From: a bacterium UBP2_UBA5202
Lineage (GTDB): Bacteria; Edwardsbacteria; AC1; EtOH8
DNA length: 64,000 nt
Direction: 5' to 3'
Assembly: GCA_002412795.1 (NCBI GenBank)
Contig: DHVS01000038.1
Span: 4-64,003 of the forward strand
In this document: positions 7,418-40,685 of the stretch, in pieces
Layout of the letters: every line of letters starts with the position of its first letter
Numbering within the stretch: position 1 is the first letter of the stretch
Translations under genes and position numbers: made by a program
The notes under the pieces: generated by a model
What the model saw: only the letters and a program-made list of their open reading frames with translations
Told to the model about the DNA's origin: nothing
Database searches by the model: none

Positions 7418-8548
7418 ATGAACAATTCTGAACGCCGCCTGTTCCCGTTCCCGGCCATCATCGGCCAGGACAAGCTGAAGACCGCCTATCTGGCCAACCT
7501 GGTCAACCCGCGCATAGGGGGTCTGCTGATCTCCGGGCCCAAGGGCACCGGCAAGAGCACCATTGTGCATTCTATTTCCTCTGTGCTGCCGGAATATCAC
7601 GCGGTGCAGGACTGCCCCTTCAACTGTGATCCGGCCGACCCGTCCCGGTTCTGTTCTCTGTGCCGGGAGAGGACCGCCCACCGGGCGCTGACCAGGCCGA
7701 TGCGGATTATCAACCTGCCGCTGTCCTGCAGCGAGGACCGGCTGGTGGGCAGCATCGACGTGGAGAAACTGCTCAAGACCGGCGAGAAGGCGGTGCTGCC
7801 GGGCATCCTGGGGGCGGCCAACGGCAACATCCTTTACGTGGACGAGGTCAACCTGCTGCCCGACCACTTGGTGGACGACATCCTGGACGCGGCGGCCTCG
7901 CACTGGAACACCATCGAGCGGGAGGGGGTGTCCGTCTCCCACCCGGCCGGCTTCGTGCTGGTGGGAACCATGAACCCGGAGGAGGGCGACCTGAGGCCCC
8001 AGATCCTGGACCGCTTCCCGCTCTGCGTCCGGATAGAGACGGTGAAGGACCCGGGACAACGGGTGGAGATAGTCCGGGCAAACCTGATGTTCGAGGACCA
8101 TCCGGAGGAATTCTTTAAGCGATACGAGACCCGGTCGGAAGCGCTGAAAGCCGCCATCATAACCGCCAGGGGACTGCTGCCGGGGGTGACGGCCGGCGAC
8201 GAGGCGGTGGCGGCGGTGGCCCGCTCCTGCGCCGAGCTGAAAGTGGACGGCCAGCGCCCGGACATAGTGATCATAAAGACCGGCCTGACCCTGGCCGCCC
8301 TCAACGGCCGCACCCAGGCCGCCCGCGAAGACATAATGCTGGCGGCCGAGCTGGCCCTGGTGCACCGCACCCGGGACGGCGGCCTGCTGGAACCGCCCTC
8401 GCCCGATGAGATAGCCCGTAGTTTCGGCAAACATGCGGCAGCGGTCCCGGCCGCCAAAGACCTGGCGGATGGGGACAGCACCCAGTCATCCGGACAACCG
8501 TCATCTGAGGCCGGTTCCGGCGCCGATGGCGTAAAAAAAAACAAATAA
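7418..8548 (+). CDS. ChlI/BchI-like AAA+ ATPase (Mg-chelatase subunit I family) with a Cys-rich insert
   Basis: Walker A GPKGTGKST, Walker B ILYVDEVN, and sensor motifs of the ChlI family. It carries a CPFNCD...CSLC four-Cys insertion. Confidence 0.8.
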   Translation: MNNSERRLFPFPAIIGQDKLKTAYLANLVNPRIGGLLISGPKGTGKSTIVHSISSVLPEYHAVQDCPFNCDPADPSRFCSLCRERTAHRALTRPMRIINLPLSCSEDRLVGSIDVEKLLKTGEKAVLPGILGAANGNILYVDEVNLLPDHLVDDILDAAASHWNTIEREGVSVSHPAGFVLVGTMNPEEGDLRPQILDRFPLCVRIETVKDPGQRVEIVRANLMFEDHPEEFFKRYETRSEALKAAIITARGLLPGVTAGDEAVAAVARSCAELKVDGQRPDIVIIKTGLTLAALNGRTQAAREDIMLAAELALVHRTRDGGLLEPPSPDEIARSFGKHAAAVPAAKDLADGDSTQSSGQPSSEAGSGADGVKKNK

Positions 8549-8586
8549 AGGCCAAACTGCAGGCACTGCAAACGGCCAGGCTTAAT

Positions 8587-9675
8587 GTGCAGCCGGGGAA
8601 TGCCGACAGGAATATCCTGAGGAGCCTCTTTAACAAGGTCAAACGCCGGTTCACCAAGCCCAAGAAAATCGCAGTAATTTCCCCGGGCCAGCCCATTCCG
8701 CTGTTCGACCCCTCCCGCAGCCTGACTGCCAAGCTCAAAGGCGGGTTCCTGAAATTCCTGAAAAAGATCGGAAAGACCAAGACCCGTTCGTTCAAGGGAA
8801 GCCCCAGGCGGAGGACCGTGGTAACCGAGCGCTCGGGACGCAACGTCAAGGAGGTGCGTTACCAGCCGGGCGAGAATACCTTGGCCCCGGTGCAGACCCT
8901 GATCAAGGCCGCCGGGCAGGGCAGGTACGAATTCAGATCCAGGCGGTTCTCCATCGGCAGCCGTGATCTGGTGGGCTGGGAAAAAGCGGAAAGGCAGAGC
9001 CTGACCCTGGTGCTGCTGGCCGACGTCAGCCATTCCACCCATCCCTATATCAACGTGATGGCCGAGATCATCAACTCGCTGACCGGCTATTTCCGGGTGA
9101 ACAAGGACCGGATCGGGTTGATCTCGCTGTCCGGCGCCCAGGCCCGGATCCTGAACCACCCCACCCACAATTACCGGGTGGTCACTAAAAGCCTGCTGTC
9201 GCTGGCCATCCAGGGGCAGACCCCGCTGGCCGACGGGATGCAGAAGGCCCTGGCCATGATCCGCCTACAGAAGCAACGTTCGCCGGGTTCCTCCAGCCTG
9301 GTGATCGCCCTGACCGACTGCTATCCCGAACCGCTGACCTTCCATTCACCCGACCCCTTCGACGAGCCGGCTTACCGGGAATCGGTGCGGGCCGCTAAGC
9401 TCTTCCGCAAGGGCAAGGTTCCGCTGCTGCTGATAAACCCGACCTTCAGTCATCATGAGGAGAAGGATTATTTTCCGGGGGAGAAGCTTTCGGTGATGAT
9501 CGAAAGCGAAAGCGGGGGGAGGCTGATAAAATTATACCGTCCCATGGAATTCGCCCAGACCCAGCCCAGCCAGGGAATTCCGCCCAGCCACCGCGACATT
9601 CTCCGGATCATCAGCGGGGTGGAGGAAATGATAGGCAGCCGTAAACTGGGGGAGGACCGCCGGATAGCGGGCTGA
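8587..9675 (+). CDS. vWA domain protein (ChlD C-terminal-like partner of the ChlI-like ATPase)
   Basis: The von Willebrand A fold is indicated by a MIDAS-like motif (LVLLADVSHST) and by the gene's position immediately downstream of the AAA+ gene. Confidence 0.65.
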   Translation: MQPGNADRNILRSLFNKVKRRFTKPKKIAVISPGQPIPLFDPSRSLTAKLKGGFLKFLKKIGKTKTRSFKGSPRRRTVVTERSGRNVKEVRYQPGENTLAPVQTLIKAAGQGRYEFRSRRFSIGSRDLVGWEKAERQSLTLVLLADVSHSTHPYINVMAEIINSLTGYFRVNKDRIGLISLSGAQARILNHPTHNYRVVTKSLLSLAIQGQTPLADGMQKALAMIRLQKQRSPGSSSLVIALTDCYPEPLTFHSPDPFDEPAYRESVRAAKLFRKGKVPLLLINPTFSHHEEKDYFPGEKLSVMIESESGGRLIKLYRPMEFAQTQPSQGIPPSHRDILRIISGVEEMIGSRKLGEDRRIAG

Positions 9676-9704
9676 GGGATCGTCCCCAAAACATAAATTT
9701 CAGG

Positions 9705-9742
9705 CAAATACAAAACCCCGCCGCTGGCGGGGTTTTGTTTGG
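9705..9742. terminator. Bidirectional rho-independent terminator
   Basis: Hairpin aaaaccccgccgctggcggggtttt with T-runs on both strands, between convergent genes. Confidence 0.6.
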
Positions 9743-9755
9743 CTATGGGCAACGC

Positions 9756-10313
9756 TTACTTGCCGGCGGTATTTTCTCCCAGGCTGGCCATGATCTTGGC
9801 GGCCTGTTCCTTGATCCCGGAGGCCTTGGTAACGGCTTCAAACAGATTACCGGCCTTGAATTCGTCCTGGGCCTGTTTCCAGGTTCCGGGCATGGCATTG
9901 ACGGCGGCTTTGGCATCGGCCAGCACAGATTTATCAACGCCTTTGGCATTGGCCACGGCGGTCTTGACACCGGCGATCAGCTTGGGCATCTCGGCTGACA
10001 GGGCCTTCCAATCCTGGGGCAGGGCGGCCTTTTTGGCCTCGATGGCGGTGCCCAGGTCCTGGACCTTGGCCGGAAGGTCCTTGGCGGAAGCCAAAGCGGC
10101 CTTGTAGTCACCCTTCTCAAATGCCTGTTTGGCCCCGGCCAGGGCGGCTTCCATCTCCGCCAGCTGTTCGGGCACGAACTTGGCGGCTTCGTTCCGGACG
10201 GTGTTCATGGCCTCCTCGGCGGTTTTGATGGCCAGCTGGGCCGGGGTCTTGCTCAGGCTGCAGGACATGGCCAGGAACGCAACGCAAAAAAGAACAGGGA
10301 TAAGTTTTTTCAT
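9756..10313 (-). CDS. Secreted Ala/Lys-rich lipoprotein-like protein
   Basis: Start at the internal MKKLIPVLFCVAFLAMSC (signal peptide plus Cys), preceded by an AGGAGAA RBS. The rest is low-complexity Ala/Lys/Glu-rich helical sequence. Confidence 0.5.
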   Translation of the reverse strand: MKKLIPVLFCVAFLAMSCSLSKTPAQLAIKTAEEAMNTVRNEAAKFVPEQLAEMEAALAGAKQAFEKGDYKAALASAKDLPAKVQDLGTAIEAKKAALPQDWKALSAEMPKLIAGVKTAVANAKGVDKSVLADAKAAVNAMPGTWKQAQDEFKAGNLFEAVTKASGIKEQAAKIMASLGENTAGK

Positions 10314-10390
10314 GTTTTCTCCTGATTGGTTTATTGTTGGGTTGATGTAAAAATTGAGTATATACCCGGAAACCGGGGTTGTCAAGATAA

Positions 10391-10741
10391 TTATTTCCGG
10401 TGCGGATCTTTTTGTTTTCTTTTGCTTTGTTTTAAGCCCGGCCCCGGCCACCGGAATCTTTCAAGATCAATATTTTCATGAAGGCCCAAAGCCACTCCTT
10501 CGCTTTCCAGCAGGGCCCGCTGTTCCTCGTAGCCGTATCCGGGTTTAAGGGAGATCGTTCCCCGGCTGTTGATCACCCTGTGCCAGGGAAGCTGTTCCTT
10601 GCCCGAGCTGGAATGAAGCAGCCAGATGACCGCCCGGGCGCCTCTGGGATTGCCGGCCAGGGCCGCGATCTGGCCGTAGGTGGCTACTTTGCCGCGGGGG
10701 ATGCGTTTGATGAGGGAGATTATCTGGGAGGAGAAGGTCAT
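10391..10741 (-). CDS. Alkyltransferase-like protein (ATL), a catalytically inactive MGMT-fold DNA damage sensor
   Basis: MGMT DNA-binding domain with PWHRV in place of the PCHRV active site, the hallmark of Atl1/YbaZ. Confidence 0.7.
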   Translation of the reverse strand: MTFSSQIISLIKRIPRGKVATYGQIAALAGNPRGARAVIWLLHSSSGKEQLPWHRVINSRGTISLKPGYGYEEQRALLESEGVALGLHENIDLERFRWPGPGLKQSKRKQKDPHRK

Positions 10742-10845
10742 GTGATATGCTGCGGTTTATTGTTGGGGTCCGGCAGTCCTTGTCCCTGTCTTTAGCGGGA
10801 TGCACAAAGCGGCGGCCATTGTTGGCCGCCGCTTCTGTTTTCCGT

Positions 10846-11607
10846 TTACACCTTCTTCTCGCCCTTGTCAATTATCTGGGCAAAATACTTCATGAACTCT
10901 ATGGGCAGGGGGAAGATGATGGTGGAATTCTTCTCCACTGCGATCTCGGTCAAAGTCTGGAGGTAGCGCAGCTGCACGGTCACCGGTTCCTGGGCCATGA
11001 TCGAAGCGGCATCCTTGAGCTTGGCCGAGGCCTGGAACTCGCCGTCGGCGTGGATCACCTTGGCCCGGCGTTCGCGCTCGGCCTCGGCCTGCTTGGCCAT
11101 GGCCCGGCGCATGCCCTCGGGCAGGTCAATGTCCTTGACCTCCACCGCCGAGACCTTGACGCCCCAGGGGTCGGTGCGCCCGTCTATCACCTTCTGCAGG
11201 GTCAGGTTGATCTTCTCCCGGTTGGTTAGCAGTTCGTCCAGTTCATGCTCGCCCAAAATGGAGCGGAGGGTGGTCTGACCCATCTGGCTGGTGGCGTACA
11301 TATAGTCCTCCACCGCGATGATGGCTTTGTCCGGCTGGAACACCTGGAAGTACATTACGGCGTTGACCTTCACCGAGACGTTGTCCTTGGTGATCACCTC
11401 CTGGGTGGGCACGTCCAGGGCGATGGTGCGCAGGGTCACCTTGACCATCTTCTCGAACAGGGGGATCAGGATGATCAGTCCCGGGCCCCGGGTGCCGACG
11501 TAGCGGCCCAGTCTAAAGACCACGCCCCGCTCGTATTCCCGCAGGATCTTGAAGGTGTTGAGCAGGATGAACAGGATGAAGATGATCAGAGCTATGGTAC
11601 CGGTCAT
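10846..11607 (-). CDS. SPFH/band-7 (stomatin-like) protein
   Basis: N-terminal TM helix followed by a prohibitin-homology domain and a coiled-coil ([11 protein letters not shown]). Confidence 0.85.
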
Positions 11608-11682
11608 GGTTGGTTCCTCCTTATGTTTGGTTGAAATTTACTAAGCGTAAAGCGTGAAGCGGATAGCGTCAAGCGTTAAGCA

Positions 11683-12054
11683 TTACGGGGTATTTTCCTT
11701 CAGACCAACGATCATTTTCCATAACATCCGGCCCACTTCCTGGGATAGGGCATATAACGTGTTAAAATCTTCAGTCTTGAGATATCCAATATCCTTTGCT
11801 AACATTAATTGGGTTTGGAATTCTGCCAGTGATCCGTTGGCGGTATAAAGAAATTGAATATATTCTTTTCTGTTTTTCCGGCCATAACCTTCCGCAATGT
11901 TTGAAGGAATTGAAACCGAGCACCTTCTGATCTGTGAGGTTAAACCATAATCTTCATTGGCTGGAAATAATTTGGTGATCTGGTATAAAGCTACACATAA
12001 TTTGTAGGACTTTTGCCACACTATCAGGTCGGCAAAACTCTTTGTTGGTTGCAT
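11683..12054 (-). CDS. Four-helix-bundle protein (23S rRNA intervening-sequence / Avd-like family), copy 1
   Basis: Family signature W....L......T..FP........QIRR...SI..NIAEG. It lies between the SPFH and NfeD genes. Confidence 0.8.
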   Translation of the reverse strand: MQPTKSFADLIVWQKSYKLCVALYQITKLFPANEDYGLTSQIRRCSVSIPSNIAEGYGRKNRKEYIQFLYTANGSLAEFQTQLMLAKDIGYLKTEDFNTLYALSQEVGRMLWKMIVGLKENTP

Positions 12055-12103
12055 ACAATCCTTATTCTATGCTCAAACAACGCTTTTCGCTAAACGCTGA
12101 CCG

Positions 12104-13381
12104 CTATACGCTCTTGGTTACCTTAAGCGTCATGCCTTTTACTTCCAATACCTTGATCTTGGTGCCTTCGGCGATCTCGGTCTCCGACCAGGCGCTCCAG
12201 TGGGTTCCTTCCACAAACACGCTTCCGCCGTCCTTGTTCACCAGGGTCCGGGCGTCGCCCTCCTGGCCCAGCAGGCCCTTGTCGCCGGAGACGGGTTTGG
12301 TCCTCAATGTCTTGATGGACAGCCAGACCCCGATGATGAAGAAGGCCGCGGTGGCCGCCACCACCGGGATGATAACCTGGAGCGAGGCCCGCAGGGCCGG
12401 GTCCGGCGAGTTGAACAGCATTACCGATCCAATGAACATGGCAACTATCCCTCCTATGCTAAGTATTCCGTGCGAGGCTATTTTGACGTCCAGGATAAAC
12501 AGCACGATGGCCAGTATTATCAGCAGCATTCCGGCGTAGCTGACCGAAAGGGTCTGGAAGGCGAAGAAGGCCAGGATCAGCGAGATGGCGCCCACCACCC
12601 CGGGCAGTATGGCCCCGGGATTGGAGAACTCAAAGTAAAGGCCCAGCAGCCCCAGCATGAAGAAGATGTAGGCGATGTTGGGATCGGAGATCACGGACAG
12701 GAACCTGTCCCGCCAGTTCATCTCTACTGTCACCGTTCGGGCCAGCTTGATGTTCAGGGTCACAGTGTCCCGGTCCATGGCTATCTTCCGGCCGTCCAGG
12801 GAATCCAACAGGGCGGAGGTGTTGGGGGCCACCAGGTCAATGACTTTGCGTTTTAAGGCCTCTGTCTCGGACAGAGAGACGCTGTGGCGGACGGCGGAGT
12901 CGGCCCAGGCCACGTTGCGGCCCCGTTTCTCGGCGATGGAGCGGATGTAGGCCGCGGCGTCATTTGTTACCTTGCCGGACATGGTGCTGTCCATCTGTCC
13001 GCTCTGCCCGATGGAGACCGGGTGGGCCGCCCCGATGCTGGTTCCCGGCGCCATGGCCGCCAGGTGGGCCGACATGGTGATGAAGGCCCCGGCCGAGGCC
13101 GCCCGCGATCCCTGGGGCGCCACGAACACTATCACCGGGACCGGCGAGGCCATGATGCTCTTGATCACCTGGCGCATGGACTGGTCCAGCCCGCCCGGGG
13201 TGTCCATCTCGATGATCAGGCACTCGGCCTGCTCCGCTTGGGCCCGTTCAACGGCCTGGACCATGAACCGGGCCGAGGCCGGGCTGACGGCGCTTTCCAC
13301 CCGGGCCACCAGTACCTGGGAGGCTTCGGCCATTCCGCTAACTAAAATTAGCGAAAGAACAAACAATAACAACTTCTTCAT
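12104..13381 (-). CDS. NfeD-family membrane-bound serine protease (ClpP-fold), partner of the SPFH protein
   Basis: N-terminal ClpP-like domain, central TM helices, and a C-terminal OB-fold NfeD domain. Confidence 0.8.
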   Translation of the reverse strand: MKKLLLFVLSLILVSGMAEASQVLVARVESAVSPASARFMVQAVERAQAEQAECLIIEMDTPGGLDQSMRQVIKSIMASPVPVIVFVAPQGSRAASAGAFITMSAHLAAMAPGTSIGAAHPVSIGQSGQMDSTMSGKVTNDAAAYIRSIAEKRGRNVAWADSAVRHSVSLSETEALKRKVIDLVAPNTSALLDSLDGRKIAMDRDTVTLNIKLARTVTVEMNWRDRFLSVISDPNIAYIFFMLGLLGLYFEFSNPGAILPGVVGAISLILAFFAFQTLSVSYAGMLLIILAIVLFILDVKIASHGILSIGGIVAMFIGSVMLFNSPDPALRASLQVIIPVVAATAAFFIIGVWLSIKTLRTKPVSGDKGLLGQEGDARTLVNKDGGSVFVEGTHWSAWSETEIAEGTKIKVLEVKGMTLKVTKSV

Positions 13382-21469: not shown

Positions 21470-21960
21470 CTTAAGAATCAAAGTATTAGTAACTTGTGTT
21501 AATTAAGTACAAATATACAACATATTGTATATTTGTCAAGAAAAAAAATAAAAATATTTTTTAGTGGATAACTTTTATTACATTGCAAAAAAATGAAAGT
21601 ATTCTAAAACCCTTTAAAATCAATGGTCTTAGAGCATTAAATAATGGTTGTTTGCCTATAGTAAAAAAAATATCCACAACACAATAGGTAGTGTTGTGGA
21701 TAACTAATTTACTGTTTTTTCAAAGATTTTTCAGGAAATGCGCTGGAAGCATTAAAAGACAAGGGTTTCAAAAGGTTCCCTTCTGAAAAAATTGTACAAC
21801 CCGCATAATCACTATTGTTTTCAAATCTCAAAATAATGAGCGGTGAAAAAAACATGATGGCCAAAAAATATTACAAAGGAAGTCAGCCGGTAATCTGCAG
21901 GCGGTATTTTTACTGGGCAGGATCATTCTCCTCCTGCTGATTTTTGCATTTAACCTATCG
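21470..21960. other. AT-rich (~25-30% GC) non-coding region of about 490 bp with DnaA-box-like sequences
   Basis: One perfect TTATCCACA (rc of 21696-21704) and two 8/9 matches (21670-21678; rc of 21565-21573). Two of them are arms of a perfect palindrome tatccacaacac/gtgttgtggata. Confidence 0.35.
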
Positions 21961-22833
21961 ATGCAATATCCGTTTGGCCAGGGCCGTGCCGCCGGCGCAC
22001 CAGTTCACCAGGCGGCTCCACAGGTCCTGCAGCCAGAACCAGGGGGAATCGTGGTCGATCTTGTGCTTCATGTCCCAGAGGAGGTCAGTGACATATACCC
22101 CGCAGCGGCGCAGGGCGTAATAATCGATGCTGCTGTTCTTGATCCCGGGCGAAAGACTGCAGGTAGAGAGGTATCCGGCATCCCGGGCGGCCTGCTTTAC
22201 CGCTTCATTATAAAGACCGAAGGGATAGGACAGGGCGGCCACCGGCAGGCCCAGGTTCTGCTCCATCACTTGGCGGGATCCCGCCAGCTCTTCCTTCAAC
22301 TTCTCCGGGCTTAAAGAACGAAGATCCCGGTGGCTTTTTCCGTGGGAGCCGAACTCGATCCCGCCGGCCTGCATCTCCTTCATCTGTTCCCAGCTCAGAT
22401 GCCCGAATTTCAAACCGCCCCAGTTGATGTCCCAGTCGTTCGTTCTCCCCGCGTAATCCGTGACCACAAAGACGGTAGCGGTGAAGCCGTATTCCCTGAG
22501 CAGGGGAAAGGCGTGCTGGTAAAGCCCGGCATAAGCGTCGTCAAAGGTCAGACAGAGGTATTTTTTGCCGCTGCTTTCTCCCTGCCGCATCAGCTCCACG
22601 GCCCGGGACAGGGTGACGCTTTGATAACCGTTCTTTCGGAAATAGTCCAAATGCCCGGCAAAACGCTTGGGGGAGATCATGGTTCCGCCCAACTCCAGCC
22701 GGGTGTCCACCTTATGGTAGGCCAGGATGGGAATGGAACTTTTGGCCGGCGGGCCGAAGCGGATCCTCCAGTAAAGGTAAAGCAGGGCGCCGGCCAGGGC
22801 GGCGGACATTATGAATACTGCGAATGTCTGCAT
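21955..22833 (-). CDS. Polysaccharide deacetylase family protein (NodB homology domain)
   Basis: N-terminal TM anchor and NodB motifs (LTFDDAY, HGKSH). Confidence 0.8.
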   Translation of the reverse strand: MQTFAVFIMSAALAGALLYLYWRIRFGPPAKSSIPILAYHKVDTRLELGGTMISPKRFAGHLDYFRKNGYQSVTLSRAVELMRQGESSGKKYLCLTFDDAYAGLYQHAFPLLREYGFTATVFVVTDYAGRTNDWDINWGGLKFGHLSWEQMKEMQAGGIEFGSHGKSHRDLRSLSPEKLKEELAGSRQVMEQNLGLPVAALSYPFGLYNEAVKQAARDAGYLSTCSLSPGIKNSSIDYYALRRCGVYVTDLLWDMKHKIDHDSPWFWLQDLWSRLVNWCAGGTALAKRILHR

Positions 22834-24238: not shown

Positions 24239-24382
24239 CCTCACCCGCCCGGGCTGCCCGCGAAAAACGAGAAAAGGGACGAAAAATAATTCATGGTATC
24301 TACCGGGGTTGCCCACGAAAAACACTAAAAGGCACGGAACATTTAAATTTTACGATGGCTTGAAAAAACGCGGATAAAGTAT

Positions 24383-24763
24383 ATGAAGGTCGAATTATTA
24401 TATAAAGATGAGAGTTATGCTATAGTAGGAGCATGTTTCAATGTATATAAAAATATGGGGAGTGGGTTTTTAGAGCCAGTTAATCAGGAATGTTTGGAGA
24501 TTGAATTTGAAAGACAAAAAATTCCATTTGAGCCGCAGAAAGAACTTGCCTTAAAATATCTGGACAGAACATTAAAGCAAAAGTATAAGCCGGACTTTGT
24601 TTGTTACGGAAAAATAGTGGTGGAGATCAAAGCGGTAGAAAAACTCATTGATGATCACAGGTCACAAATGTTGAATTACCTTAACGCCACCGGTTTTAAA
24701 TTGGGCTTGCTGGTTAATTTCGGCCACCACCCCAGGATGGAAAACGAAAGATTTATCCTTTAA
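24383..24763 (+). CDS. GxxExxY protein (PD-(D/E)xK-like, PF13366 family)
   Basis: Motif IVGACFNVYKNMGSGFLEPVNQECLEIEF. The gene is AT-rich and inserted between the asrA-like and asrB-like genes. Confidence 0.8.
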   Translation: MKVELLYKDESYAIVGACFNVYKNMGSGFLEPVNQECLEIEFERQKIPFEPQKELALKYLDRTLKQKYKPDFVCYGKIVVEIKAVEKLIDDHRSQMLNYLNATGFKLGLLVNFGHHPRMENERFIL

Positions 24764-24833
24764 ATCAAACTCCCGCTAAAAATAGAAAAATATTTTTTCG
24801 TGTATTTAGTGGGCAAAACCAAAAGTAAGAGCT

Positions 24834-26300: not shown

Positions 26301-26378
26301 GATTTGGCCACAGAAAGCACATAAAACACAAAAATACATCTCTTAAATTCGGTTTGTGACCTTTGTGCCTTTTGTGGC
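26301..26378 (+). promoter_or_regulatory. Second copy of box A / box B, followed by a CACAAAGGCAC-type inverted motif
   Basis: GCCACAGAAAGCACATAAAAC ... CTTAAATTCGGT ... tttgtgacctttgtgccttttgtgg. Confidence 0.45.
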
Positions 26379-26403
26379 GGAATAGTAACAAAAATAGGAA
26401 TAT

Positions 26404-27858: not shown

Positions 27859-27936
27859 GCCCGACCCCTCCCTTGATCCCTCCCCGCTGCGGAGAGGGAT
27901 AATATGAAGGTTGAAAAGGTTATAACCTGAGTTAGG

Positions 27937-28130
27937 AAGGCTGTAACTACGGTTAGCAAGGTCCTGACCAAGGCCGGAAGGATTCTAACCAAGGTTAGCA
28001 AGGTTATTACCTAGGTCGGAAGGGTTATTACCTAGGTCGGAAGGGTTATTACCTGGGCCGGAAGGGTTATTACCTAGGTCGGAAGGGTTCTTACCTGGGT
28101 TACAAGGGTTATTACCATAGTTAGCAGCTT
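27937..28130. repeat. Array of about nine degenerate 21-bp tandem repeats (consensus aagggttattacctaggtcgg)
   Basis: Directly visible head-to-tail units. They are preceded by related AAGGTTG(A/T)AAAGGTT motifs at 27908-27925. Confidence 0.85.
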
Positions 28131-30846: not shown

Positions 30847-30947
30847 ACCGGGGAAACCGGTTGAAAAGGTTGGACGAACATACGGTTGAAGATGTTGAAA
30901 AAGTTGATGTGTCGTTCTGATGAAAATGGTGAGGTGATTGAAAAAAC

Positions 30948-31367
30948 ATGACGGTTAAGAGATTTGAGGATCTGAAAATCTGGCAACAGGCCAAAGAGCT
31001 GGCCAACTTGATTTATGATTTAACCGGAACAAACGCTTTCAAAGGCGACAGGAGTCTTACAGATCAATCCCGCCGGGCGGCAGTTTCGGTAATGGCCAAT
31101 ATTGCCGAGGGATTTGAGAGAGGCAGCAACAAAGAATTCATTCAGTTTTTGTTTATTGCAAAAGGTTCGTGCGGAGAACTGAGAAGCCACCTGATATTAG
31201 CTCAAGACCGCTGTTATATAACCCCGGTACAACATACGCAAGCCAGAGAAATGGCTTTAGGGATTTCCACGATGGTGTATAACTTCATCACATATTTACA
31301 AAACACTAAAGTTAAAGGCAAGAGGTGCCAAACCTCTTCAACAATTTCAACAAAAGCAACATCTTAA
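30948..31367 (+). CDS. Four-helix-bundle protein (IVS/Avd-like), copy 2
   Basis: The same family signature as copy 1 (IWQQA...RAAVSVMANIAEGFERGS). Confidence 0.8.
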   Translation: MTVKRFEDLKIWQQAKELANLIYDLTGTNAFKGDRSLTDQSRRAAVSVMANIAEGFERGSNKEFIQFLFIAKGSCGELRSHLILAQDRCYITPVQHTQAREMALGISTMVYNFITYLQNTKVKGKRCQTSSTISTKATS

Positions 31368-31382
31368 ACATTCAGGGATACA

Positions 31383-33062: not shown

Positions 33063-33287
33063 TGGAAATGTCCGGCAGGAAGCAACGATGACGATGGAGA
33101 AGCAATAATATAAGCAGGGCAACGTTGGAGAGGTCCAACAGGGAGGCAGGCAACGATAAACGTTCCATCGTTGAGCGGCTTCCAAAGCAAGACTTCTCAA
33201 ACATTGCAATACCGGAAATATGGCATCTCCATCAAATAAAGTTAAGAAGAACAGATCTTTTTATAAATAATACAAGTTAAAAGCGAT

Positions 33288-34187
33288 ATGCAGTCATTAG
33301 TAAAAATGATCATCATGGTGGCGCTGCTGCTCTTCGTCTCGCCGCTGCTGGAAGGCATCCTGCGCAAGTTCAAGGCGCTGGTGCATTCCCGGATCGGGCC
33401 GCCGTTGTTGCAGCCGTACTGGGACATCCTTAAGCTGCTGGGCAAGGACGACGTCCGCTCGCCCCACTCCTTTCTGGGGCCGCTGCCGGCCTTTCTGGGC
33501 CTGGCCGCCATCCTGGCCGCCGGCCTGCTGGTGCCGCTGGGAAACAGCGCGCCCTTCGCCAGCGGGGACCTGTTCCTGTTCCTCTACCTGATCAGCTTCG
33601 CCTCGGTCTGCGTGATGCTGGCCGGCATGGACTCAGGCTCGCCCTACGGATTTTTGGGCACCGCCCGGGAGATGATGACCTCTTTCGTGGTGGAACCGGT
33701 GCTGTTCATCGCCCTGATCACCGTGGCCATCAAGACCCACAACTTCCGTTTCTCCGACATGGCGGCCTACCAGCAGATCTCCGGGGCCTCGCTTTCCACC
33801 ATCATCTCCGGGCTGGCCCTGTTCCTGGGGATCCAGGCACAGCTTTCCAAACTGCCGTTCGACATCCCCGAGGCCGAGGGCGAGCTGATGGGCGGCACCT
33901 TTGCCGAGATGTCCGGCCCGACCTTTGCCCTGTACCGCTGGGGCTTCATCGCCAAACAGGTGATATTCTCCATGATCCTGGCCCAGCTGTTCTTCCCCTG
34001 GCCGTTGGGGTTGGTTGGCCTGTGGGCGGTGGTGGCCCAGATAGCCAAAGTGATCCTGATCGTGGTGCTGGTGGGGCTGATAGACGCGGTCAACCCCCGG
34101 CTACGGATAGACCAGGCGCTCGTTTATTACTTCGGGGTTATTCTGATGGCGATCGTCGGTTTGGTCTTTGCGCTGGTCGGAGCCTGA
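33288..34187 (+). CDS. hycD: NuoH/HycD-like membrane subunit (formate hydrogenlyase subunit 4 family)
   Basis: A 299-aa, 8-TM protein with the complex I subunit-1 family N-terminus (...EGILRKFKALVHSRIGP). Confidence 0.85.
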   Translation: MQSLVKMIIMVALLLFVSPLLEGILRKFKALVHSRIGPPLLQPYWDILKLLGKDDVRSPHSFLGPLPAFLGLAAILAAGLLVPLGNSAPFASGDLFLFLYLISFASVCVMLAGMDSGSPYGFLGTAREMMTSFVVEPVLFIALITVAIKTHNFRFSDMAAYQQISGASLSTIISGLALFLGIQAQLSKLPFDIPEAEGELMGGTFAEMSGPTFALYRWGFIAKQVIFSMILAQLFFPWPLGLVGLWAVVAQIAKVILIVVLVGLIDAVNPRLRIDQALVYYFGVILMAIVGLVFALVGA

Positions 34188-34243
34188 GGCATTTACAATT
34201 CGGGATTTACCATTTGGAAACTTTCCGGTGGAGAGAAGAGTAA

Positions 34244-34657
34244 ATGGCGACTTTTAAGAAATTTGAAGAAGTGGATATTTGGATAAAAGCGCGTGAATTG
34301 ACCAAGCGGATTTACGAAGCCTCTCGCAAAGGGGCTTTTGCCAAGGATTATTCTTTGGGCGACCAGATGAGGCGGGCATCGGTGTCGATCATGTCAAATA
34401 TTGCCGAGGGTTTTAATCGTGGCGGGAACAAAGAGCTTGTCCAATATTTGGCAATCGCCAAAGGATCTGCGGCAGAGATACAAAGCCAGTTATATGTCGC
34501 ACTTGACCAACAGTATATACCCAAAGAAGTATTTAACGATTTGTACAATTTAACAGACCAAATTGCAGCCGGAATATTTTCTTTTATAATTTATCTCAAT
34601 AAAAGCAATATCAAAGGGATAAAATATAAATACGCCCAAATTCCAAATGGTAAATAA
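34244..34657 (+). CDS. Four-helix-bundle protein (IVS/Avd-like), copy 3
   Basis: Family signature (DIWIKA...[19 protein letters not shown]). Confidence 0.8.
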
Positions 34658-34679
34658 ATAGCAGGAAAGAATTGCTAAC

Positions 34680-35135
34680 ATGATCATATCCAAATTGAAA
34701 GAGGCATTGATCTGCTTCAAGAACCTGAGGGTCACCTTTCCCTATCCCCTGAAGCGGAACATCGAGGCCCTTCCGGTGGAGGGCTTCCGGGGCAAGTTGA
34801 CCATAGACGTGTCCAAGTGCATCGGCTGCGCCGGCTGCGCCAACGTCTGCCCATCGCGGCTGATCATCGTCACCGACAAGAAGGCGGTGCGCCGGCTGGA
34901 CTTTTACCTGGAGCGCTGCACTTACTGCGGGCGCTGCGCCGACGTCTGCCCGGAGAAGGCCATCACCATGACCCAGGAGTTCGAGACCGCCACCAACGAC
35001 GTCCACAACGACATGCACATCAGCGCCGAGGTCTACATGGGAACCTGCCAGCGCTGCGGAAGATGTTTCGAGACCCAGACCATCCTGGACAAGATGATGA
35101 CGGTGGGGTTCCGGAACAACCAAACTACCGAATAA
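34680..35135 (+). CDS. hycF: 2x[4Fe-4S] ferredoxin subunit (NuoI/HycF-like)
   Basis: CIGCAGCANVCP and CTYCGRCADVCP motifs in a 151-aa protein. Confidence 0.85.
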   Translation: MIISKLKEALICFKNLRVTFPYPLKRNIEALPVEGFRGKLTIDVSKCIGCAGCANVCPSRLIIVTDKKAVRRLDFYLERCTYCGRCADVCPEKAITMTQEFETATNDVHNDMHISAEVYMGTCQRCGRCFETQTILDKMMTVGFRNNQTTE

Positions 35136-35145
35136 ACCACAAAGA

Positions 35146-35202
35146 CACAAAGGCACTATTTTCGTAATCGTAAATTATTTTGTGTCTTAGTGCCTTAGTG
35201 GT
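35146..35202. promoter_or_regulatory. Inverted-repeat motif ACACAAAGGCACT...AGTGCCTTAG in the hycF / hyfE-like gap
   Basis: It recurs at 40635-40685, and in degenerate form at 26353-26378. Confidence 0.4.
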
Positions 35203-35221
35203 GAAAATAATAAGGAAGAAT

Positions 35222-35884: not shown

Positions 35885-35953
35885 TCCGGTTCCCGCTGGA
35901 CGGTCCGGCCTGGGTCAATAAAGAACGTTTAACGTTTGAAAGGAGCCCGGCAA

Positions 35954-36430
35954 ATGACAGACAAAAATATCCTTAAAAACATCTCGCTGTTTTCCGATTT
36001 TTCAGATAAGGAGATCGAGAAGATGGCGGCCCTGTTTTCCGAACGGTCATTCAAGGAAAACGAAGTGCTGATCCCGGAGCAGTCCGAAAACCTCGAGCTG
36101 ATGATCCTTTTGGAGGGCAGCGTGGCGGTGGAGGTGGGACTGAGCCTTTCGGCCAGCGCCGAAAAACTGATGCTGACCTCCGAGGATTCCCCCGGCCGGA
36201 TCATCGAATGGTCCTCGGCCATCGACACCACCAAGAGCGGCGGCACCGCCTCGGCCCGGGCCCTAAAGCCCACCAAAGTGCTGGTGGCCGACGGGCAGGA
36301 ACTGGTAAACCTCTTCAAGTCGGAGAAGGAGCTGGGCTACAAGCTGATGCATAGAATCCTGCTGGTTATAGCCTCCCGGCTGAAGGACACCAGGCTGCAG
36401 CTGATCAGCATGGCGGCCCAGTGCCGGTAA
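35954..36430 (+). CDS. Cyclic-nucleotide-binding (cNMP) domain protein without a DNA-binding domain
   Basis: The Crp/PKA-like effector-domain pattern (FSDFSDKEIEKMAALFSERSFKENEVL... GE.AL) is present and there is no HTH. The start is MTDKN, preceded by an AAAGGAG RBS. Confidence 0.6.
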   Translation: MTDKNILKNISLFSDFSDKEIEKMAALFSERSFKENEVLIPEQSENLELMILLEGSVAVEVGLSLSASAEKLMLTSEDSPGRIIEWSSAIDTTKSGGTASARALKPTKVLVADGQELVNLFKSEKELGYKLMHRILLVIASRLKDTRLQLISMAAQCR

Positions 36431-36597: not shown

Positions 36598-38124
36598 ATG
36601 GTCGTTACTATCAATCCCACCGCGGTCTCGATCCTGCCGTTCCTGGTGTTCATGGTTCCCCTGTTCTTCGGGGGCCTGATCTTCGCCCTGGGACGCTACG
36701 GCAAGTTCTTCCGGCAGGGTCTGGCCCTGATCGGGATCTTCGCCACCTTGGCCATCTCGATCATGATGACCGGACGGGTGCTGGGCGGCGAGGTGCTGAC
36801 CTGGTGGAACAATAACTTCTACATCGACGGCTTGGCCACCCTGATGGAACTGGCGGCCAGCGGGCTGGGGGCCATAGTGGTGGTCTACTCCATCTACTAT
36901 TTCTCGGAGAAGACCGAGGCGGCCGAGGCCCACCCCTACACCAGCATGACCAGTTACTATGGGCAGATCATGGTCTTTCTGGGGCTGATGAACTGGACCT
37001 GCGCCACCAACAACATCATCATGATGTACGTCTCGCTGGAGTTCACCACCCTGGCCACGGTCTTTTTGGTGACCTTCCACTGGAACAAGCAGGCACTGGA
37101 AGCCGGTTACAAATATCTTCTATTGGTGACTGTGGGGGTGATCTTCGCCCTGCTGGGCTCGGTCCTTTTATACGCCGCGGCCATTCCCTACCTGCCGGTG
37201 TCGAGGGTCCTGCTTTTGACCGAGCTGGGGACCATTGCCACCAAGATACCCACCAACATAGTGCTGCTGGCCTCGGCCTTCTTAGTCGTCGGTTTCGGCA
37301 CCAAGGCCGGCCTGGTGCCCTTTCACGCCTGGCTGCCGGATGCCCACGCCGAGGCCCCGGCCCCGGTAAGCGCCCTGCTCTCCGGCATCGTCATCAAAGT
37401 GGGGGCCTACGCCCTGGCCAGGACCATCTCGGTCTTTGCCCCGCACTACGGCACCATCCCGCTGTTCATCGCCATTCTCTGTTCCATCTCCATGATCGTG
37501 GGAATGATGATGGCCATGATCCAGGACGACCTGAAGCGGATGCTGGCCTACTCCTCGGTCGCCCAGATCGCCTACGTGATCGAGGGCCTGGGAATGGGCA
37601 CCTACCTGGGGATCTACGGCGGCCTGATGCACCTGCTGAACCACTCCATCGTCAAGGGCCTGCTGTTCCTGGCGGTGGGGGCGCTGATCTACGCCACCGG
37701 CAAGCGCAAGGTGTCCGAGTTGTCAAAGATCAAATTGAACATGCCCATCACCGCCTTCGCCTTTTTCGTGGGAATATTCGCCCTATCCGGGATGCCGCCC
37801 TTCAACGGCTTCGTCTCAAAATTCACCCTGTTTTTGGCGGTGGGCCAGGCCAATCTTTTGTGGGCGGCCATCATCGGCATCATCACCTCGCTGTTCACCC
37901 TGGTTTGTTTCTTTAGGGCCGGATACAAGATATTCTGGTCGCCGAAAGAAAGTTATTCCGTCGGGGCTGAAACAACCACCGCCGCCGAGGTCCCGGCCGG
38001 GATGTGGGTGGGCATGGTGATCCTGGCCGTGGCGGCCATAGCGTTGGGGGTATTTCCCCAGATCGTGCACCCGCTTTTGGACAGCGCCACCAAGTGCATA
38101 CTGAGGATATTGATCGGGGGCTGA
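36598..38124 (+). CDS. Antiporter-like membrane subunit (HyfF / NuoN / MrpD-like)
   Basis: A 508-aa protein of the NuoM/N family (WLPDAHAEAPAPVSALLSG). Confidence 0.8.
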   Translation: MVVTINPTAVSILPFLVFMVPLFFGGLIFALGRYGKFFRQGLALIGIFATLAISIMMTGRVLGGEVLTWWNNNFYIDGLATLMELAASGLGAIVVVYSIYYFSEKTEAAEAHPYTSMTSYYGQIMVFLGLMNWTCATNNIIMMYVSLEFTTLATVFLVTFHWNKQALEAGYKYLLLVTVGVIFALLGSVLLYAAAIPYLPVSRVLLLTELGTIATKIPTNIVLLASAFLVVGFGTKAGLVPFHAWLPDAHAEAPAPVSALLSGIVIKVGAYALARTISVFAPHYGTIPLFIAILCSISMIVGMMMAMIQDDLKRMLAYSSVAQIAYVIEGLGMGTYLGIYGGLMHLLNHSIVKGLLFLAVGALIYATGKRKVSELSKIKLNMPITAFAFFVGIFALSGMPPFNGFVSKFTLFLAVGQANLLWAAIIGIITSLFTLVCFFRAGYKIFWSPKESYSVGAETTTAAEVPAGMWVGMVILAVAAIALGVFPQIVHPLLDSATKCILRILIGG

Positions 38125-38153
38125 AACTTAAACTGTTTGAACCGAGAAATGAC

Positions 38154-38510
38154 ATGAATAAGACAAAATATAACCAGTCATTTTGGAGTGCTTTAGATAC
38201 ATTGCTTAAATCATGCGAAGTTATTGTTGACCGACCGAAAGGAGCTCAACACCCAAGATACCCTGGTTGTATTTATCCTCTTGATTATGGTTATTTAAAA
38301 GGAACACTATCCTTGGACAATTCAGGAATTGATATTTGGAAAGGCAGCAACAATAAGAACAGTATAAATGGAATACTCTGCACTATTGATTTGCATAAAA
38401 AGGATTCGGAGATAAAGATAATGATTGATTGCACTCAGGATGAAAAAAGTAAAATATTAGATTTTCACAATGAGAATAATATGTATGCAATTTTAATTGA
38501 TCGCGAATAA
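38154..38510 (+). CDS. AT-rich hypothetical protein (119 aa)
   Basis: The ORF is low-GC relative to its surroundings. The start is taken at MNKTKYNQ; the ORF-track N-terminal extension overlaps the upstream gene. Confidence 0.4.
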   Translation: MNKTKYNQSFWSALDTLLKSCEVIVDRPKGAQHPRYPGCIYPLDYGYLKGTLSLDNSGIDIWKGSNNKNSINGILCTIDLHKKDSEIKIMIDCTQDEKSKILDFHNENNMYAILIDRE

Positions 38511-38705: not shown

Positions 38706-39035
38706 ATGACACATCAAGAAACAAAGGAACATATCGCAGCGGTCATCCGCGATGAGTTCAAAGAAAAAAACATCGCAATAAAAAACATGATCCTCTTTGG
38801 AAGCCAGGCGCGGCAGAATGCCGGGCCCGGCAGCGACTGGGATTTTATGGTAAGCGTGGCGGAAGAATTGGGGTTCATTGAAAAATCAAAAATAACAACC
38901 AGCATTCAAAGAAAGCTGGCGGCAAAGCATCTCTCGGCCGATATCATCATCAAATCCGAAATGAAAATGAATCAGGAGCGCAATAACGTCGGCTTCATAA
39001 CTTATTACGCGCTTAAAGATGGAGTCCCGGCATGA
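38706..39035 (+). CDS. Minimal nucleotidyltransferase (MntA-like antitoxin component)
   Basis: FGSQARQNAGPGSDWD motif (GS-x9-13-DxD). Confidence 0.8.
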   Translation: MTHQETKEHIAAVIRDEFKEKNIAIKNMILFGSQARQNAGPGSDWDFMVSVAEELGFIEKSKITTSIQRKLAAKHLSADIIIKSEMKMNQERNNVGFITYYALKDGVPA

Positions 39036-39427
39036 ATGAAGAGATCGTAAAATTGTGGCTCCTAAAAACGGATAACGATTTTAAAACCGGCAAGGATGAA
39101 CTGGCTACGGAAAGCCCGGCAACGGATACCATTTGCTTTCATATGCAACAGTGCGTGGAAAAACATCTTAAGGCATTTCTGGTTTCCAAAGGCGTGGAAA
39201 TATCAAAATCCCACAATCTATCCCTTATCCTGCAGCAGTGCGCCGACGTTGATCCTGATTTTGAAAAACTTAAATCCAGCGGAGCTGATGAATTAACCCC
39301 ATATGCAGTAAATGCCAGATACCCGGATGATTTTTATATGCCGTCTCAGGAAGAAACTCAGAATGCCGTCCGGATGGCGGAAAAAGTGAATACCTTTGTC
39401 CTTGCAAAAATAAAACCATCAACATGA
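39032..39427 (+). CDS. HEPN domain protein (HepT-like toxin component)
   Basis: A 4-nt overlap with the NT gene. A HEPN-fold helix set with a conserved ARY...Y segment. Confidence 0.7.
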   Translation: MNEEIVKLWLLKTDNDFKTGKDELATESPATDTICFHMQQCVEKHLKAFLVSKGVEISKSHNLSLILQQCADVDPDFEKLKSSGADELTPYAVNARYPDDFYMPSQEETQNAVRMAEKVNTFVLAKIKPST

Positions 39428-39443
39428 AATCAGGCGCATTAAA

Positions 39444-40604
39444 ATGAAAAAATCAGTTGCAATGTTTCTAACGGTCAGCGTTCTGATAACGCTGGTGTTC
39501 TTCGGCTGCGGGCCGGGCGGCCAGCAGATCAAGATCGGGGTGGCCGGGCCGCTGACCGGCGAGCAGGGCAAGGCCGGGCAGGACCTGCTGCACGGGGTGC
39601 AGCTGGCGGTCTCCGAGTGCAACGCCCGGGGCGGGGTGCTGGGCAAGCGGGTGGTGATCATCGCCGGGGACGACCGGGCTGATGAGAAGGAGGCCAATGT
39701 CATAGCCCAGCGGCTGTGCGACCAAGGGGTGGCCGGAGTGGTGGGGCACTACAACAGCCACTGCTCCATAGCCGGCAGCCGGATCTACAACCAGAGGATG
39801 ATCCCCCAGATCACCCCTTCGTCCACCAACCCCAAGTTCACCCGGCAGGGGTTTGTCAACGTCTTCCGGACCTGCGGCCGCGACGACCAGCAGGGCAGGA
39901 TAGCCGCCGACTACGCCTTCAACACAATGAAGGTCAAGAAAGTGGCCATCTTCTCCGACGGCACTACCTACGGGCTGGGGCTGGCCGAGGAATTCAAGAA
40001 ATCCATCCTGTCGTACAACCAGCCGAAGAAGGTCGAAGTGACCATTGTGGCCGAGGCCCAGCTGCCGCTGATCACCGAGGGCAAGGCCCCGGACTACGGC
40101 CCGCTGTTGGATCCCCTGATCAGCTACCAGCCCGACCTGATCTATTTCGGCGGCAGCTATCCCGAAGGGGCCATGCTGATCCGGCAGATCAAGGAACGCC
40201 GGCTGGCGGCGGCTTTCATGACCGGGGACGCCATAGCCAACTCGGAGCTGATCAAACGGGGCGGGGTGGCCACCGAGGGAATATTATTCACCTTCGGGCC
40301 GGCGGTGGAGGACATGCCCCAGGCCGGCAGGTTCTACGATTCCTTCAAGGCCCGCTACGGCGAGCTGGGCCCCTACTCGGTTTACGCCTACGACGCGGCC
40401 ACCGTGCTGCTGAAAAGCATTGAGCTGGCCGGGACCACCGGCGGGGATTCCCTGGTCAAGGTGATCCATTCCGCCAAATTCTCCGGAGCCATGGGCGAGC
40501 TGGAATTTGACGAGACGGGTGACATCAGGGCCGCTCCCTATGTGCTGTGGACGGTGAAGGGCGGGGAGTTCCGGCCGGTCAGGGCGGAGACTACGTTAAA
40601 ATAG
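39444..40604 (+). CDS. Periplasmic-binding-protein type I (LivJ/LivK-like branched-chain amino acid) solute-binding lipoprotein, orphan
   Basis: Signal peptide plus FFGC lipobox, then the IKIGVAGPLTG start typical of Leu/Ile/Val-binding proteins. No permease or ATPase genes lie nearby. Confidence 0.75.
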   Translation: MKKSVAMFLTVSVLITLVFFGCGPGGQQIKIGVAGPLTGEQGKAGQDLLHGVQLAVSECNARGGVLGKRVVIIAGDDRADEKEANVIAQRLCDQGVAGVVGHYNSHCSIAGSRIYNQRMIPQITPSSTNPKFTRQGFVNVFRTCGRDDQQGRIAADYAFNTMKVKKVAIFSDGTTYGLGLAEEFKKSILSYNQPKKVEVTIVAEAQLPLITEGKAPDYGPLLDPLISYQPDLIYFGGSYPEGAMLIRQIKERRLAAAFMTGDAIANSELIKRGGVATEGILFTFGPAVEDMPQAGRFYDSFKARYGELGPYSVYAYDAATVLLKSIELAGTTGGDSLVKVIHSAKFSGAMGELEFDETGDIRAAPYVLWTVKGGEFRPVRAETTLK

Positions 40605-40634: not shown

Positions 40635-40685
40635 AACACAAAGGCACCAAGGGTTAATTAATTTGTGTCTTGGTGTCTTAGCGGC
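40635..40685. promoter_or_regulatory. Second copy of the ACACAAAGGCAC ... TTTGTGTCTTGGTGTCTTAG motif ahead of the hydrogenase small-subunit gene
   Basis: Sequence similarity to 35146-35202. Confidence 0.4.

Follow-up and report, generated by a model that had tools for sequence, protein, structure and literature searches.

Intervening sequences (IVSs) in the 23S rRNA of Leptospira, Coxiella burnetii and Xanthomonas occupy helix 25 or 45, are distributed sporadically, and can hold an open reading frame (ORF) for an S23p protein in the loop of a stem; ORF-less versions also occur (PMC4990558). In Coxiella the S23p ORF follows three or four tandem heptamers, RNase III cuts the stem at the first heptamer, and the ORF has been reported to be decaying and probably untranslated (PMC4990558). 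Cyanobacterial short tandemly repeated repetitive (STRR) sequences consist of 7-bp repeats that form hairpins, for instance in the hupS-hupL spacer of uptake hydrogenase operons; their function is unknown, and stabilisation or translational coupling has been proposed (PMC2670836). Correia repeat-enclosed elements are, like other bacterial MITEs (miniature inverted-repeat transposable elements), short, strain-variable inverted-repeat insertions between co-transcribed genes, and the hairpins in their RNA are bound by RNase III, which can cleave them (PMC2649163). Here we describe a four-helix-bundle gene of the IVS protein (IVP) family, IVP3, which lies between two hydrogenase genes in a 64,000-nucleotide stretch of contig DHVS01000038.1 from the metagenome-assembled Candidatus Edwardsbacteria (UBP2) genome UBP2_UBA5202 (the whole stretch is hereafter the window) and is flanked by inverted arrays of heptamer-like units. 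What appears to be new is the generalisation of the IVS design to messenger operons and its link to STRR-like hairpins.

Results

Inverted arrays flank a four-helix-bundle gene in a hydrogenase operon

The IVP3 cassette occupies the entire spacer between hycD and hycF of a group-4 hydrogenase or formate-hydrogenlyase-like operon (Table 1). Its 5' array begins 3 nt past the hycD stop codon, and the ATTTNNN array is also present in the ortholog from a related genome (L013). A perfect 15-nt inverted repeat surrounds the gene, with its left arm at 34205-34219 (ATTTACCATTTGGAA) and its right arm at 34641-34655 (TTCCAAATGGTAAAT). An earlier sequence-only reading of this DNA had reported a 15-nt inverted repeat with arms at 34213-34228 and 34647-34662 that bracketed the ORF exactly. 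The repeat is real; those positions were too high by 8 and 6 nt, respectively, and the bracketing is not exact, because 24 nt separate the left arm from the ATG (a gap equal to the family median) and the right arm covers the last codons (133-137, IPNGK, plus the first base of the stop codon). The hycF ATG lies 24 nt downstream of the right arm. Four ATTTNNN units facing three NNNAAAT units, inverted and placed in an operon spacer, form an arrangement of the STRR type. A promoter and terminator scan returned nothing convincing within the cassette.

We scored flanking repeats by local alignment of the 5' flank with the reverse complement of the 3' flank, using shuffled sequences and real genes as controls; global RNA duplex energies between 130-nt flanks were dropped as a statistic, since almost everything pairs. 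None of 200 shuffles attained the IVP3 score (z ~7), and the 15-mer, allowing up to two mismatches, occurred at just these two sites in 64 kb (0.18 expected). Only 4 of 63 window ORFs had a flanking repeat at z of at least 4: IVP3, its paralog IVP1, a GxxExxY gene and a polysaccharide deacetylase gene, the last being the sole ORF of the four outside a cassette. The predicted long-range stem that closes the loop was seen in both the minimum free energy and the centroid RNA folds of all three IVP cassettes in the window.

Two family models identified the protein. PF05635 (23S_rRNA_IVP; Pfam) gave 117.9 bits, its cut-off being 33.8, and the NCBIfam model TIGR02436 ('four helix bundle protein') gave 109.2 bits with a cut-off of 24. 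By sequence, the nearest solved structure was Xanthomonas Xcc0516 (PDB 2GSC, E 1e-11). An AlphaFold model built from the single sequence (pLDDT, the predicted local distance difference test score, 79.5) has helices at residues 11-28, 36-58, 62-88 and 94-121, followed by a disordered tail (residues 122-137) that is partly encoded by the 3' repeat array. Foldseek ranked 2GSC first (TM-score 0.74/0.86, root-mean-square deviation 1.9 A), 2RLD, annotated as a Bacteroides 'S23 ribosomal protein family' member, second (0.69/0.87), and the Avd proteins of diversity-generating retroelements (DGRs; 8UB7 and 4DWL) after these. IVP3 is thus predicted to be an up-down four-helix bundle resembling Xcc0516 and BT_0352, and these sequence and structure matches bear out the IVS-protein and Avd-like identity proposed previously. 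The gene differs in composition from its surroundings (GC 0.39 and third-position GC, GC3, 0.41, with GC3 of ~0.86 in the flanking genes), and the ratio of nonsynonymous to synonymous substitution rates (dN/dS) against the L013 ortholog was 0.06.

Several other identities were considered. Avd has a homologous four-helix bundle (PDB 4DWL, 8UB7; Foldseek TM 0.74-0.79 normalised to the target), and IVP1 matches an Avd PHROG (E 6e-12). A DGR Avd assignment was nevertheless rejected: IVP3 had no Avd-model match, IVP1 scored 41.2 bits against a cut-off of 80 (NF033474), and, unlike in DGRs, neither a reverse transcriptase nor a template/variable repeat pair lies near IVP3. No RVT family was found among the genes at 24-44 kb or the other larger window ORFs, and no long direct repeat pair near IVP3. 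The earlier statement that reverse transcriptase is absent agrees with this for the ORFs scanned, a few short or unassigned ones aside, and the same applies to transposases and integrases, of which none was found. IVP3 is not a 23S rRNA IVS proper, as it lies between two protein-coding genes and the window has no match to large-subunit (LSU) rRNA or to any other Rfam family. A MITE or insertion sequence was rejected on the grounds that the arms of the three IVPs are unrelated, no duplication stands beside them and no transposase was found among the scanned ORFs. An integron gene cassette, with a single 3' attC site and an integrase, does not fit repeats on both sides of the ORF in a window whose scanned ORFs include no integrase. 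A toxin-antitoxin module was also considered and rejected, and none of the PADLOC defence-system models matched the three window IVPs or the GxxExxY protein. The TAACTGA repeats of Beggiatoaceae are a different phenomenon, being direct repeats upstream of start codons.

Table 1. IVP3, its host genes and related elements in the window (positions count from the first letter of the window).
Feature	Position	Strand	Description
Upstream host gene	33288-34187	+	HycD/NuoH-like membrane subunit of group-4 [NiFe] hydrogenase; PF00146 NADHdh, E 7e-53; GC3 0.87
IVP3 5' repeat array	34191-34219	+	ATTTACA ATTCGGG ATTTACC ATTTGGA (+A), four heptamer-like units; last 15 nt form the left arm
Spacer	34228-34243	+	Shine-Dalgarno-like GGTGGAGAGAAG (GGAG-type ribosome-binding site) between left arm and ATG
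IVP3 ORF	34244-34657	+	414 bp including stop, 137 aa; 23S-rRNA-IVS (S23p) / Avd-like four-helix-bundle family
IVP3 3' repeat array	34635-34659	+	CCCAAAT TCCAAAT GGTAAAT AAAT; reverse complement of ATTTNNN units
Downstream host gene	34680-35135	+	HycF/NuoI-like 2x[4Fe-4S] subunit; Fer4 families
IVP2 cassette	30885-31369	+	ORF 30948-31367, between HycC-like and HycE-like genes; 45.5% identical to IVP3
IVP1 cassette	11644-12112	-	ORF 11686-12054, between NfeD and SPFH genes; 38.5% identical to IVP3
GxxExxY / PD-(D/E)XK-like cassette	24309-24816	+	ORF 24383-24763, TIGR04256; cassette anatomy like the IVPs
ORF-less hairpin	26302-26383	+	CACANAAA units; between hycI and NuoN-like gene; -28.5 kcal/mol, z -4.5
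ORF-less hairpin	35126-35203	+	CACAAAG(A/G) unit arms; spacer between hycF and next gene; -22.2 kcal/mol, z -3.7
ORF-less hairpin	40637-40680	+	CAC(A/C)AAG units; spacer before hycG, where four relatives have an IVP gene

Flanking arrays are a property of the IVP family

To place IVP3 within its family, unrelated JGI metagenome contigs were scanned with an alignment of IVPs, giving 80 loci with homologs 36-57% identical, of which 71 had enough flank to test at the same threshold of z at least 4. A flanking inverted repeat was present in 51 of the 71 (72%; median z 9.3) and in 10 of 186 control ORFs from the same loci (5%), most of which abut a cassette or an ORF-less array. The median inverted score was 36 and the median direct score 16, and 45 of the 71 arrays were clearly inverted. 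Most copies therefore do not lack repeats, and the proposal that these genes are cassettes rather than ordinary regulators holds as a family-wide property.

Nearly all census arms consisted of tandem arrays, such as GTTTCTA x7 facing CGAAACC x16, AGTGCTG x4 or GCAGAAG x6. The period of the 5' array was 7 nt in 28 of 36 cassettes, 8 nt in five, 9 nt in one and 14 nt in two. Arms had a median length of 33 nt; the 5' arm ended a median of 24 nt before the ATG, and the 3' arm started at the stop codon, lying inside the ORF in 49% of cases. Against these metrics IVP3 is a weak but geometrically typical member of the family. Cassettes sharing a unit carried IVPs 53-68% identical (against a mean of 43%) in unrelated genomic contexts. 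The arms thus travel, or are handed down, together with the ORF, and the sequence of the unit is itself conserved. ORF-less inverted arrays were frequent on the same contigs, several of them with the unit of the neighbouring cassette. Array-flanked genes in named organisms include the four-helix-bundle gene of Nostoc sp. ATCC 53789 (GGGAAAA arrays, z 14.6) and an IVP gene of Riemerella anatipestifer (GTTCAAG arrays, z 10.8). None of the 80 loci contained rRNA, and the only Rfam match among them was one cobalamin riboswitch.

The hycD-hycF copy is conserved among related Edwardsbacteria

We compared nine related Edwardsbacteria genomes or strains that have the operon (HycE 83-99% identical). 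An IVP gene was present at the hycD-hycF junction in all nine lineages. Other junctions varied: hycC-hycE was occupied in four and empty in three or more; hycE-hycD was occupied in six and empty in the window and one other; the junction between hycF and the next gene was occupied in three and empty in seven; and that before hycG was occupied in four and empty in the remaining five, window included. In a neighbour-joining tree the IVPs grouped by junction, and the clades of adjacent junctions were sisters with related repeat units. Values of dN/dS among the IVPs (0.06-0.22) were similar to those of the host genes and indicate that IVP3 is under purifying selection. Synteny in nine of nine lineages, clustering by junction and the dN/dS range together indicate that the gene at hycD-hycF is an old and functional one, passed on mainly by vertical descent.

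These results bear on the sequence-only reading, which had proposed a family of selfish or processing cassettes and had named syntenic copies conserved across distant relatives as evidence to the contrary. That contrary evidence is present in part: the hycD-hycF copy is syntenic, in relatives that are themselves Edwardsbacteria, and the other junctions vary. The cassette family stands, and little speaks for selfishness or mobility in IVP3, which has not moved recently. In a strain with 99.6-99.8% identity to the window, a fourth IVP cassette stands at the junction of hycF and the next gene, where the window instead has 104 unrelated bases. A relative 94% identical (L007) is without the hycC-hycE ORF and its 5' arm and retains the 3'-arm region. 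A search for empty sites in relatives, as suggested earlier, gave no clean one: compared with the window, L002 and L007 show spacer replacement or partial deletion. Mobility is thus visible only as loss, gain and allele replacement at neighbouring junctions, and as same-unit cassettes in unrelated contexts.

Window IVP3 is 81% identical to the L013 protein and 57% to that of L011, whereas the flanking genes say the opposite. Arms at hycD-hycF vary by sub-clade (ATTTACC/ATTTGGA, GATTTGG, GTTTACA and GTTCCGN), both arms changing together, and they evolve by turnover of units. That the IVP gene has kept its low GC even at this anciently occupied junction suggests either repeated replacement of alleles or selection favouring low GC.

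The comparison also yielded some incidental observations. A prolyl-tRNA synthetase gene stands between the hycD-hycF cassette and hycF in L010 (13541-14998), L012 and L016; in L016 an IVP gene stands on either side of it, and masked runs of N in that region make an apparent frameshift not meaningful. In L011, the relative nearest at species level, a partial tandem duplication is seen at 8361-11677 (the IVP2 3' end and two thirds of hycE, then a full hycE) that is either real or an assembly artefact. The L007 contig is labelled Candidatus Latescibacterota; its 94% DNA identity to the hycC-hycE region of the window suggests a binning or labelling error in that metagenome-assembled genome.

Paralogs and ORF-less elements in the window

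The earlier count of three paralogous four-helix-bundle genes in 64 kb was correct, and all three stand between co-directional operon genes with flanking repeats, that of IVP2 being weak. IVP1 has a 34-nt repeat (11644-11677/12079-12112; 76%, z 6.7-7.6) with five AGCGNNN heptamers per arm, and its 5' arm (12079-12112) overlaps the NfeD stop codon. The IVP2 arms are arrays of the 9-mer GTTGAANNN, pairing 30885-30905 with 31331-31351 and 30885-30897 with 31357-31369. Arm scores between different IVP copies were at background, except for orthologous copies with near-identical arms. The description of these repeats as private therefore needs qualifying: their sequences are unrelated among the three copies, but the design is one, that of tandem 7-9-nt units, and elsewhere ORF-less hairpins share the unit of a neighbouring cassette.

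Within the window, the unit CAC(N)AAA recurs in four elements, namely the three ORF-less hairpins and the arms of the GxxExxY cassette, whose ORF is flanked by a 22-nt, 86% inverted repeat of these units that is kept in the L011 ortholog. Two of the three hairpins stand at junctions that hold an IVP gene in relatives, and the 35126-35203 hairpin is also found in L013. In nearly every intercistronic spacer of the hydrogenase operon there is a stem-loop element, whether or not its loop contains a gene.

Other features of the region were recorded in passing. The hycE-hycD spacer (33063-33287) is a 225-bp AT-rich sequence with an unusually stable predicted fold (-42 kcal/mol, z -3.3) at the place where six relatives hold an IVP cassette, and it may be a cassette remnant. 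A direct repeat spaced 55 nt lies upstream of the GxxExxY gene. About 9.6 copies of the 21-nt unit AAGGTTATTACCTAGGTAGG fill 27916-28116, between the NuoN-like gene and a low-GC 178-aa ORF for which no family match was found. The operon is further interrupted by genes at 35936-36430, 38004-38510, 38706-39427 and 39444-40604, the interruptions comprising a weak cNMP (cyclic nucleotide)-binding gene, a low-GC unassigned ORF, a nucleotidyltransferase/HEPN pair and a periplasmic binding protein; hycG is found only downstream of them. The 15-nt, 93% inverted repeat GCCAAAAAATATTAC (21860-21874/22882-22896) around the polysaccharide deacetylase gene (21955-22833) has arms 1 kb apart.

Discussion

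We consider it most likely, with roughly even confidence, that IVP3 is an IVS-type cassette in a messenger operon, looped out of the transcript by a stem that either is cut by RNase III or stabilises or insulates the message. The precedents of the Coxiella IVS, STRR hairpins and Correia elements are our reason for reading it so. The cassette, comprising in order a tandem-repeat array, a ribosome-binding site, the IVP ORF and an inverted array, would be transcribed with the operon. Pairing of its arms in the polycistronic RNA would loop out the ORF of ~420 nt and place the stop codon of hycD and the ribosome-binding site of hycF together at the foot of a single stem. By analogy with 23S rRNA IVSs, RNase III may cut that stem; alternatively, the stem may simply stabilise or insulate the message between cistrons. 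In both cases the host operon would be undisturbed by the insertion, and the IVP message would be released or expressed separately. The weakest step concerns the protein: the putatively pentameric, Avd-like IVP probably recognises its own arrays, because the repeat unit is conserved within cassette lineages. In phage T7 early mRNA, RNase III cuts the polycistronic transcript at intercistronic stem-loops into stable, translatable messages, which is the mode of action proposed here; the T7 hairpins differ in being local, in having no gene in the loop and in not consisting of tandem units.

The resemblance to rRNA-borne IVSs extends to the PF05635 protein, the placement of its ORF in a stem loop, the tandem heptamers just upstream (in Coxiella), the existence of ORF-less versions and the sporadic distribution (PMC4990558). 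The host there is an rRNA helix, here a protein-coding operon; the Coxiella ORF is reportedly decaying, whereas IVP3 is under purifying selection; and RNase III excision has been demonstrated for the rRNA elements and is presumed here. STRR sequences share with the window the folding of tandem heptamers into an intercistronic hairpin within a hydrogenase operon, and they resemble the window's ORF-less hairpins in particular; they were described without an ORF in the loop and in cyanobacteria rather than Edwardsbacteria, and the Nostoc IVP gene noted above has heptamer arrays of its own. MITEs have one shared terminal-repeat sequence and target-site duplications; here the tandem arms are copy-specific, no duplication is seen, and many elements carry a conserved protein gene.

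Several of our own results weigh against a cassette acting through an RNA stem. Mismatches between arms showed no excess of G:U-compatible pairs on the sense strand (93 vs 107, p=0.36), and sense and antisense stems were equally stable (-37.4 vs -36.3 kcal/mol), so that the RNA stem cannot be told from a DNA-level repeat. Whole-region fold energies of the three window cassettes were unexceptional (z -0.1 to -1.8). The IVP3 stem has only 15 bp, which is short for a classical RNase III substrate, usually about two helical turns. The IVP2 repeat (30885-30905/31331-31351; 21 nt, 81%) is weak, at z 2.6-3.2 and reached by 1 of 200 shuffles, and among Edwardsbacteria just 14 of 28 IVP copies reached z of at least 4. 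In the census, 6 of 71 loci had direct arrays or palindromic units that scored both ways and 20 were ambiguous, and among the 42 copies whose neighbours on both sides were called, only 24 were co-directional with both; embedding in an operon is therefore not universal.

The lack of an RNA-specific (G:U) signature is what a DNA-level mobile element would predict, with the arrays as terminal inverted repeats or hairpin/cruciform ends, the machinery supplied in trans or involving the IVP, the ORF-less hairpins as MITE-like derivatives and RNA pairing as a by-product. Conservation of the unit across cassettes in unrelated contexts, same-unit ORF-less inverted arrays beside ORF-bearing ones, presence/absence differences between strains 99.7% and 94% identical, ORF GC below flank GC at 68 of 71 census loci, and an IVP genealogy in conflict with the host genes (81% to L013, 57% to L011) all fit such an element. 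We nonetheless think it unlikely: the scanned ORFs include neither a transposase or integrase nor a reverse transcriptase, the arms show no target-site duplication, the contrast between occupied and empty alleles is one of whole-spacer replacement rather than clean insertion, and no recent duplicates exist (identity between paralogs is 38-45% within the window and does not exceed 73% on one contig). Clustering by junction and occupancy in nine of nine lineages make transposition rare at best, and the four-helix bundle is not known to have catalytic activity. If instead the arrays were iterated sites for an IVP oligomer, serving autoregulation or a ribonucleoprotein assembly such as Avd enters in DGRs, their inversion would reflect binding symmetry and IVP3 would be an ordinary resident gene. 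That a 7-nt period predominates suggests an iterated recognition element, and unit sequence, beyond complementarity, is conserved among IVPs 53-68% identical, which favours some sequence-specific reader. A minority of cassettes have direct arrays on both sides (L115, a Gemmatirosa plasmid with CTCCTGC, and L097, L037 and L060), the protein is under strong purifying selection, and DGR particles have Avd bound to both RNA and reverse transcriptase (PDB 8UB7). We judge this quite unlikely all the same: it leaves unexplained why arrays stand on both sides, the 3' array being located at the stop codon or inside it, why ORF-less inverted arrays fold into strong hairpins, and why relatives in rRNA undergo excision at the stem (PMC4990558), and binding of IVPs to the arrays is purely putative.

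Chance deserves mention because the IVP3 stem is short, at 15 bp, the IVP2 repeat is marginal (1 of 200 shuffles), and simple shuffles can overstate significance in repetitive sequence, so that AT-rich, low-complexity spacers might give spurious matches round an ordinary small gene. The real-sequence controls speak otherwise, with repeats at 5% of control ORFs and 72% of IVP genes, as do the 4 of 63 window ORFs at threshold and the gap between median inverted (36) and direct (16) scores; same-junction orthologs, moreover, keep the repeat while its sequence changes. The census effectively refutes this most improbable of the explanations.

A bolder version of the cassette reading would make IVP genes with inverted heptamer arrays widespread, unrecognised, autonomous 'intervening cassettes' of any transcript, with 23S rRNA merely the place where they were first seen. 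An Avd-like pentamer would read its own arm unit, as RNA or DNA, and would excise and/or propagate the cassette together with RNase III as host factor, or else with a reverse transcriptase or recombinase in trans, and STRR-like ORF-less hairpins would be non-autonomous derivatives. Taken as a whole we consider this distinctly improbable.

In a literature search of incomplete coverage we found no description of array-flanked IVP genes outside rRNA and no paper linking STRR hairpins to four-helix-bundle genes. Shared as it is by relatives in many bacteria, the layout suggests a cassette that is widespread and apparently undescribed. The function of S23p/IVS proteins and the origin of rRNA IVSs have been open questions since the early 1990s, and that of STRR hairpins is likewise open. 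Our results tie these topics together: relatives of the IVS protein are for the most part found outside rRNA, tandem heptamers accompany them in a stem-plus-ORF design, and ORF-less hairpins occur in the same operons. Genome annotation is affected too, since the cassettes interrupt operons, extend ORFs by array-encoded tails and vary among strains that are otherwise nearly identical. What is now annotated as a 'four helix bundle protein' would become part of a defined genetic element with testable predictions, namely that RNase III cleaves at the arms, that the IVP binds its own unit, and that the stoichiometry of the operon products is altered.

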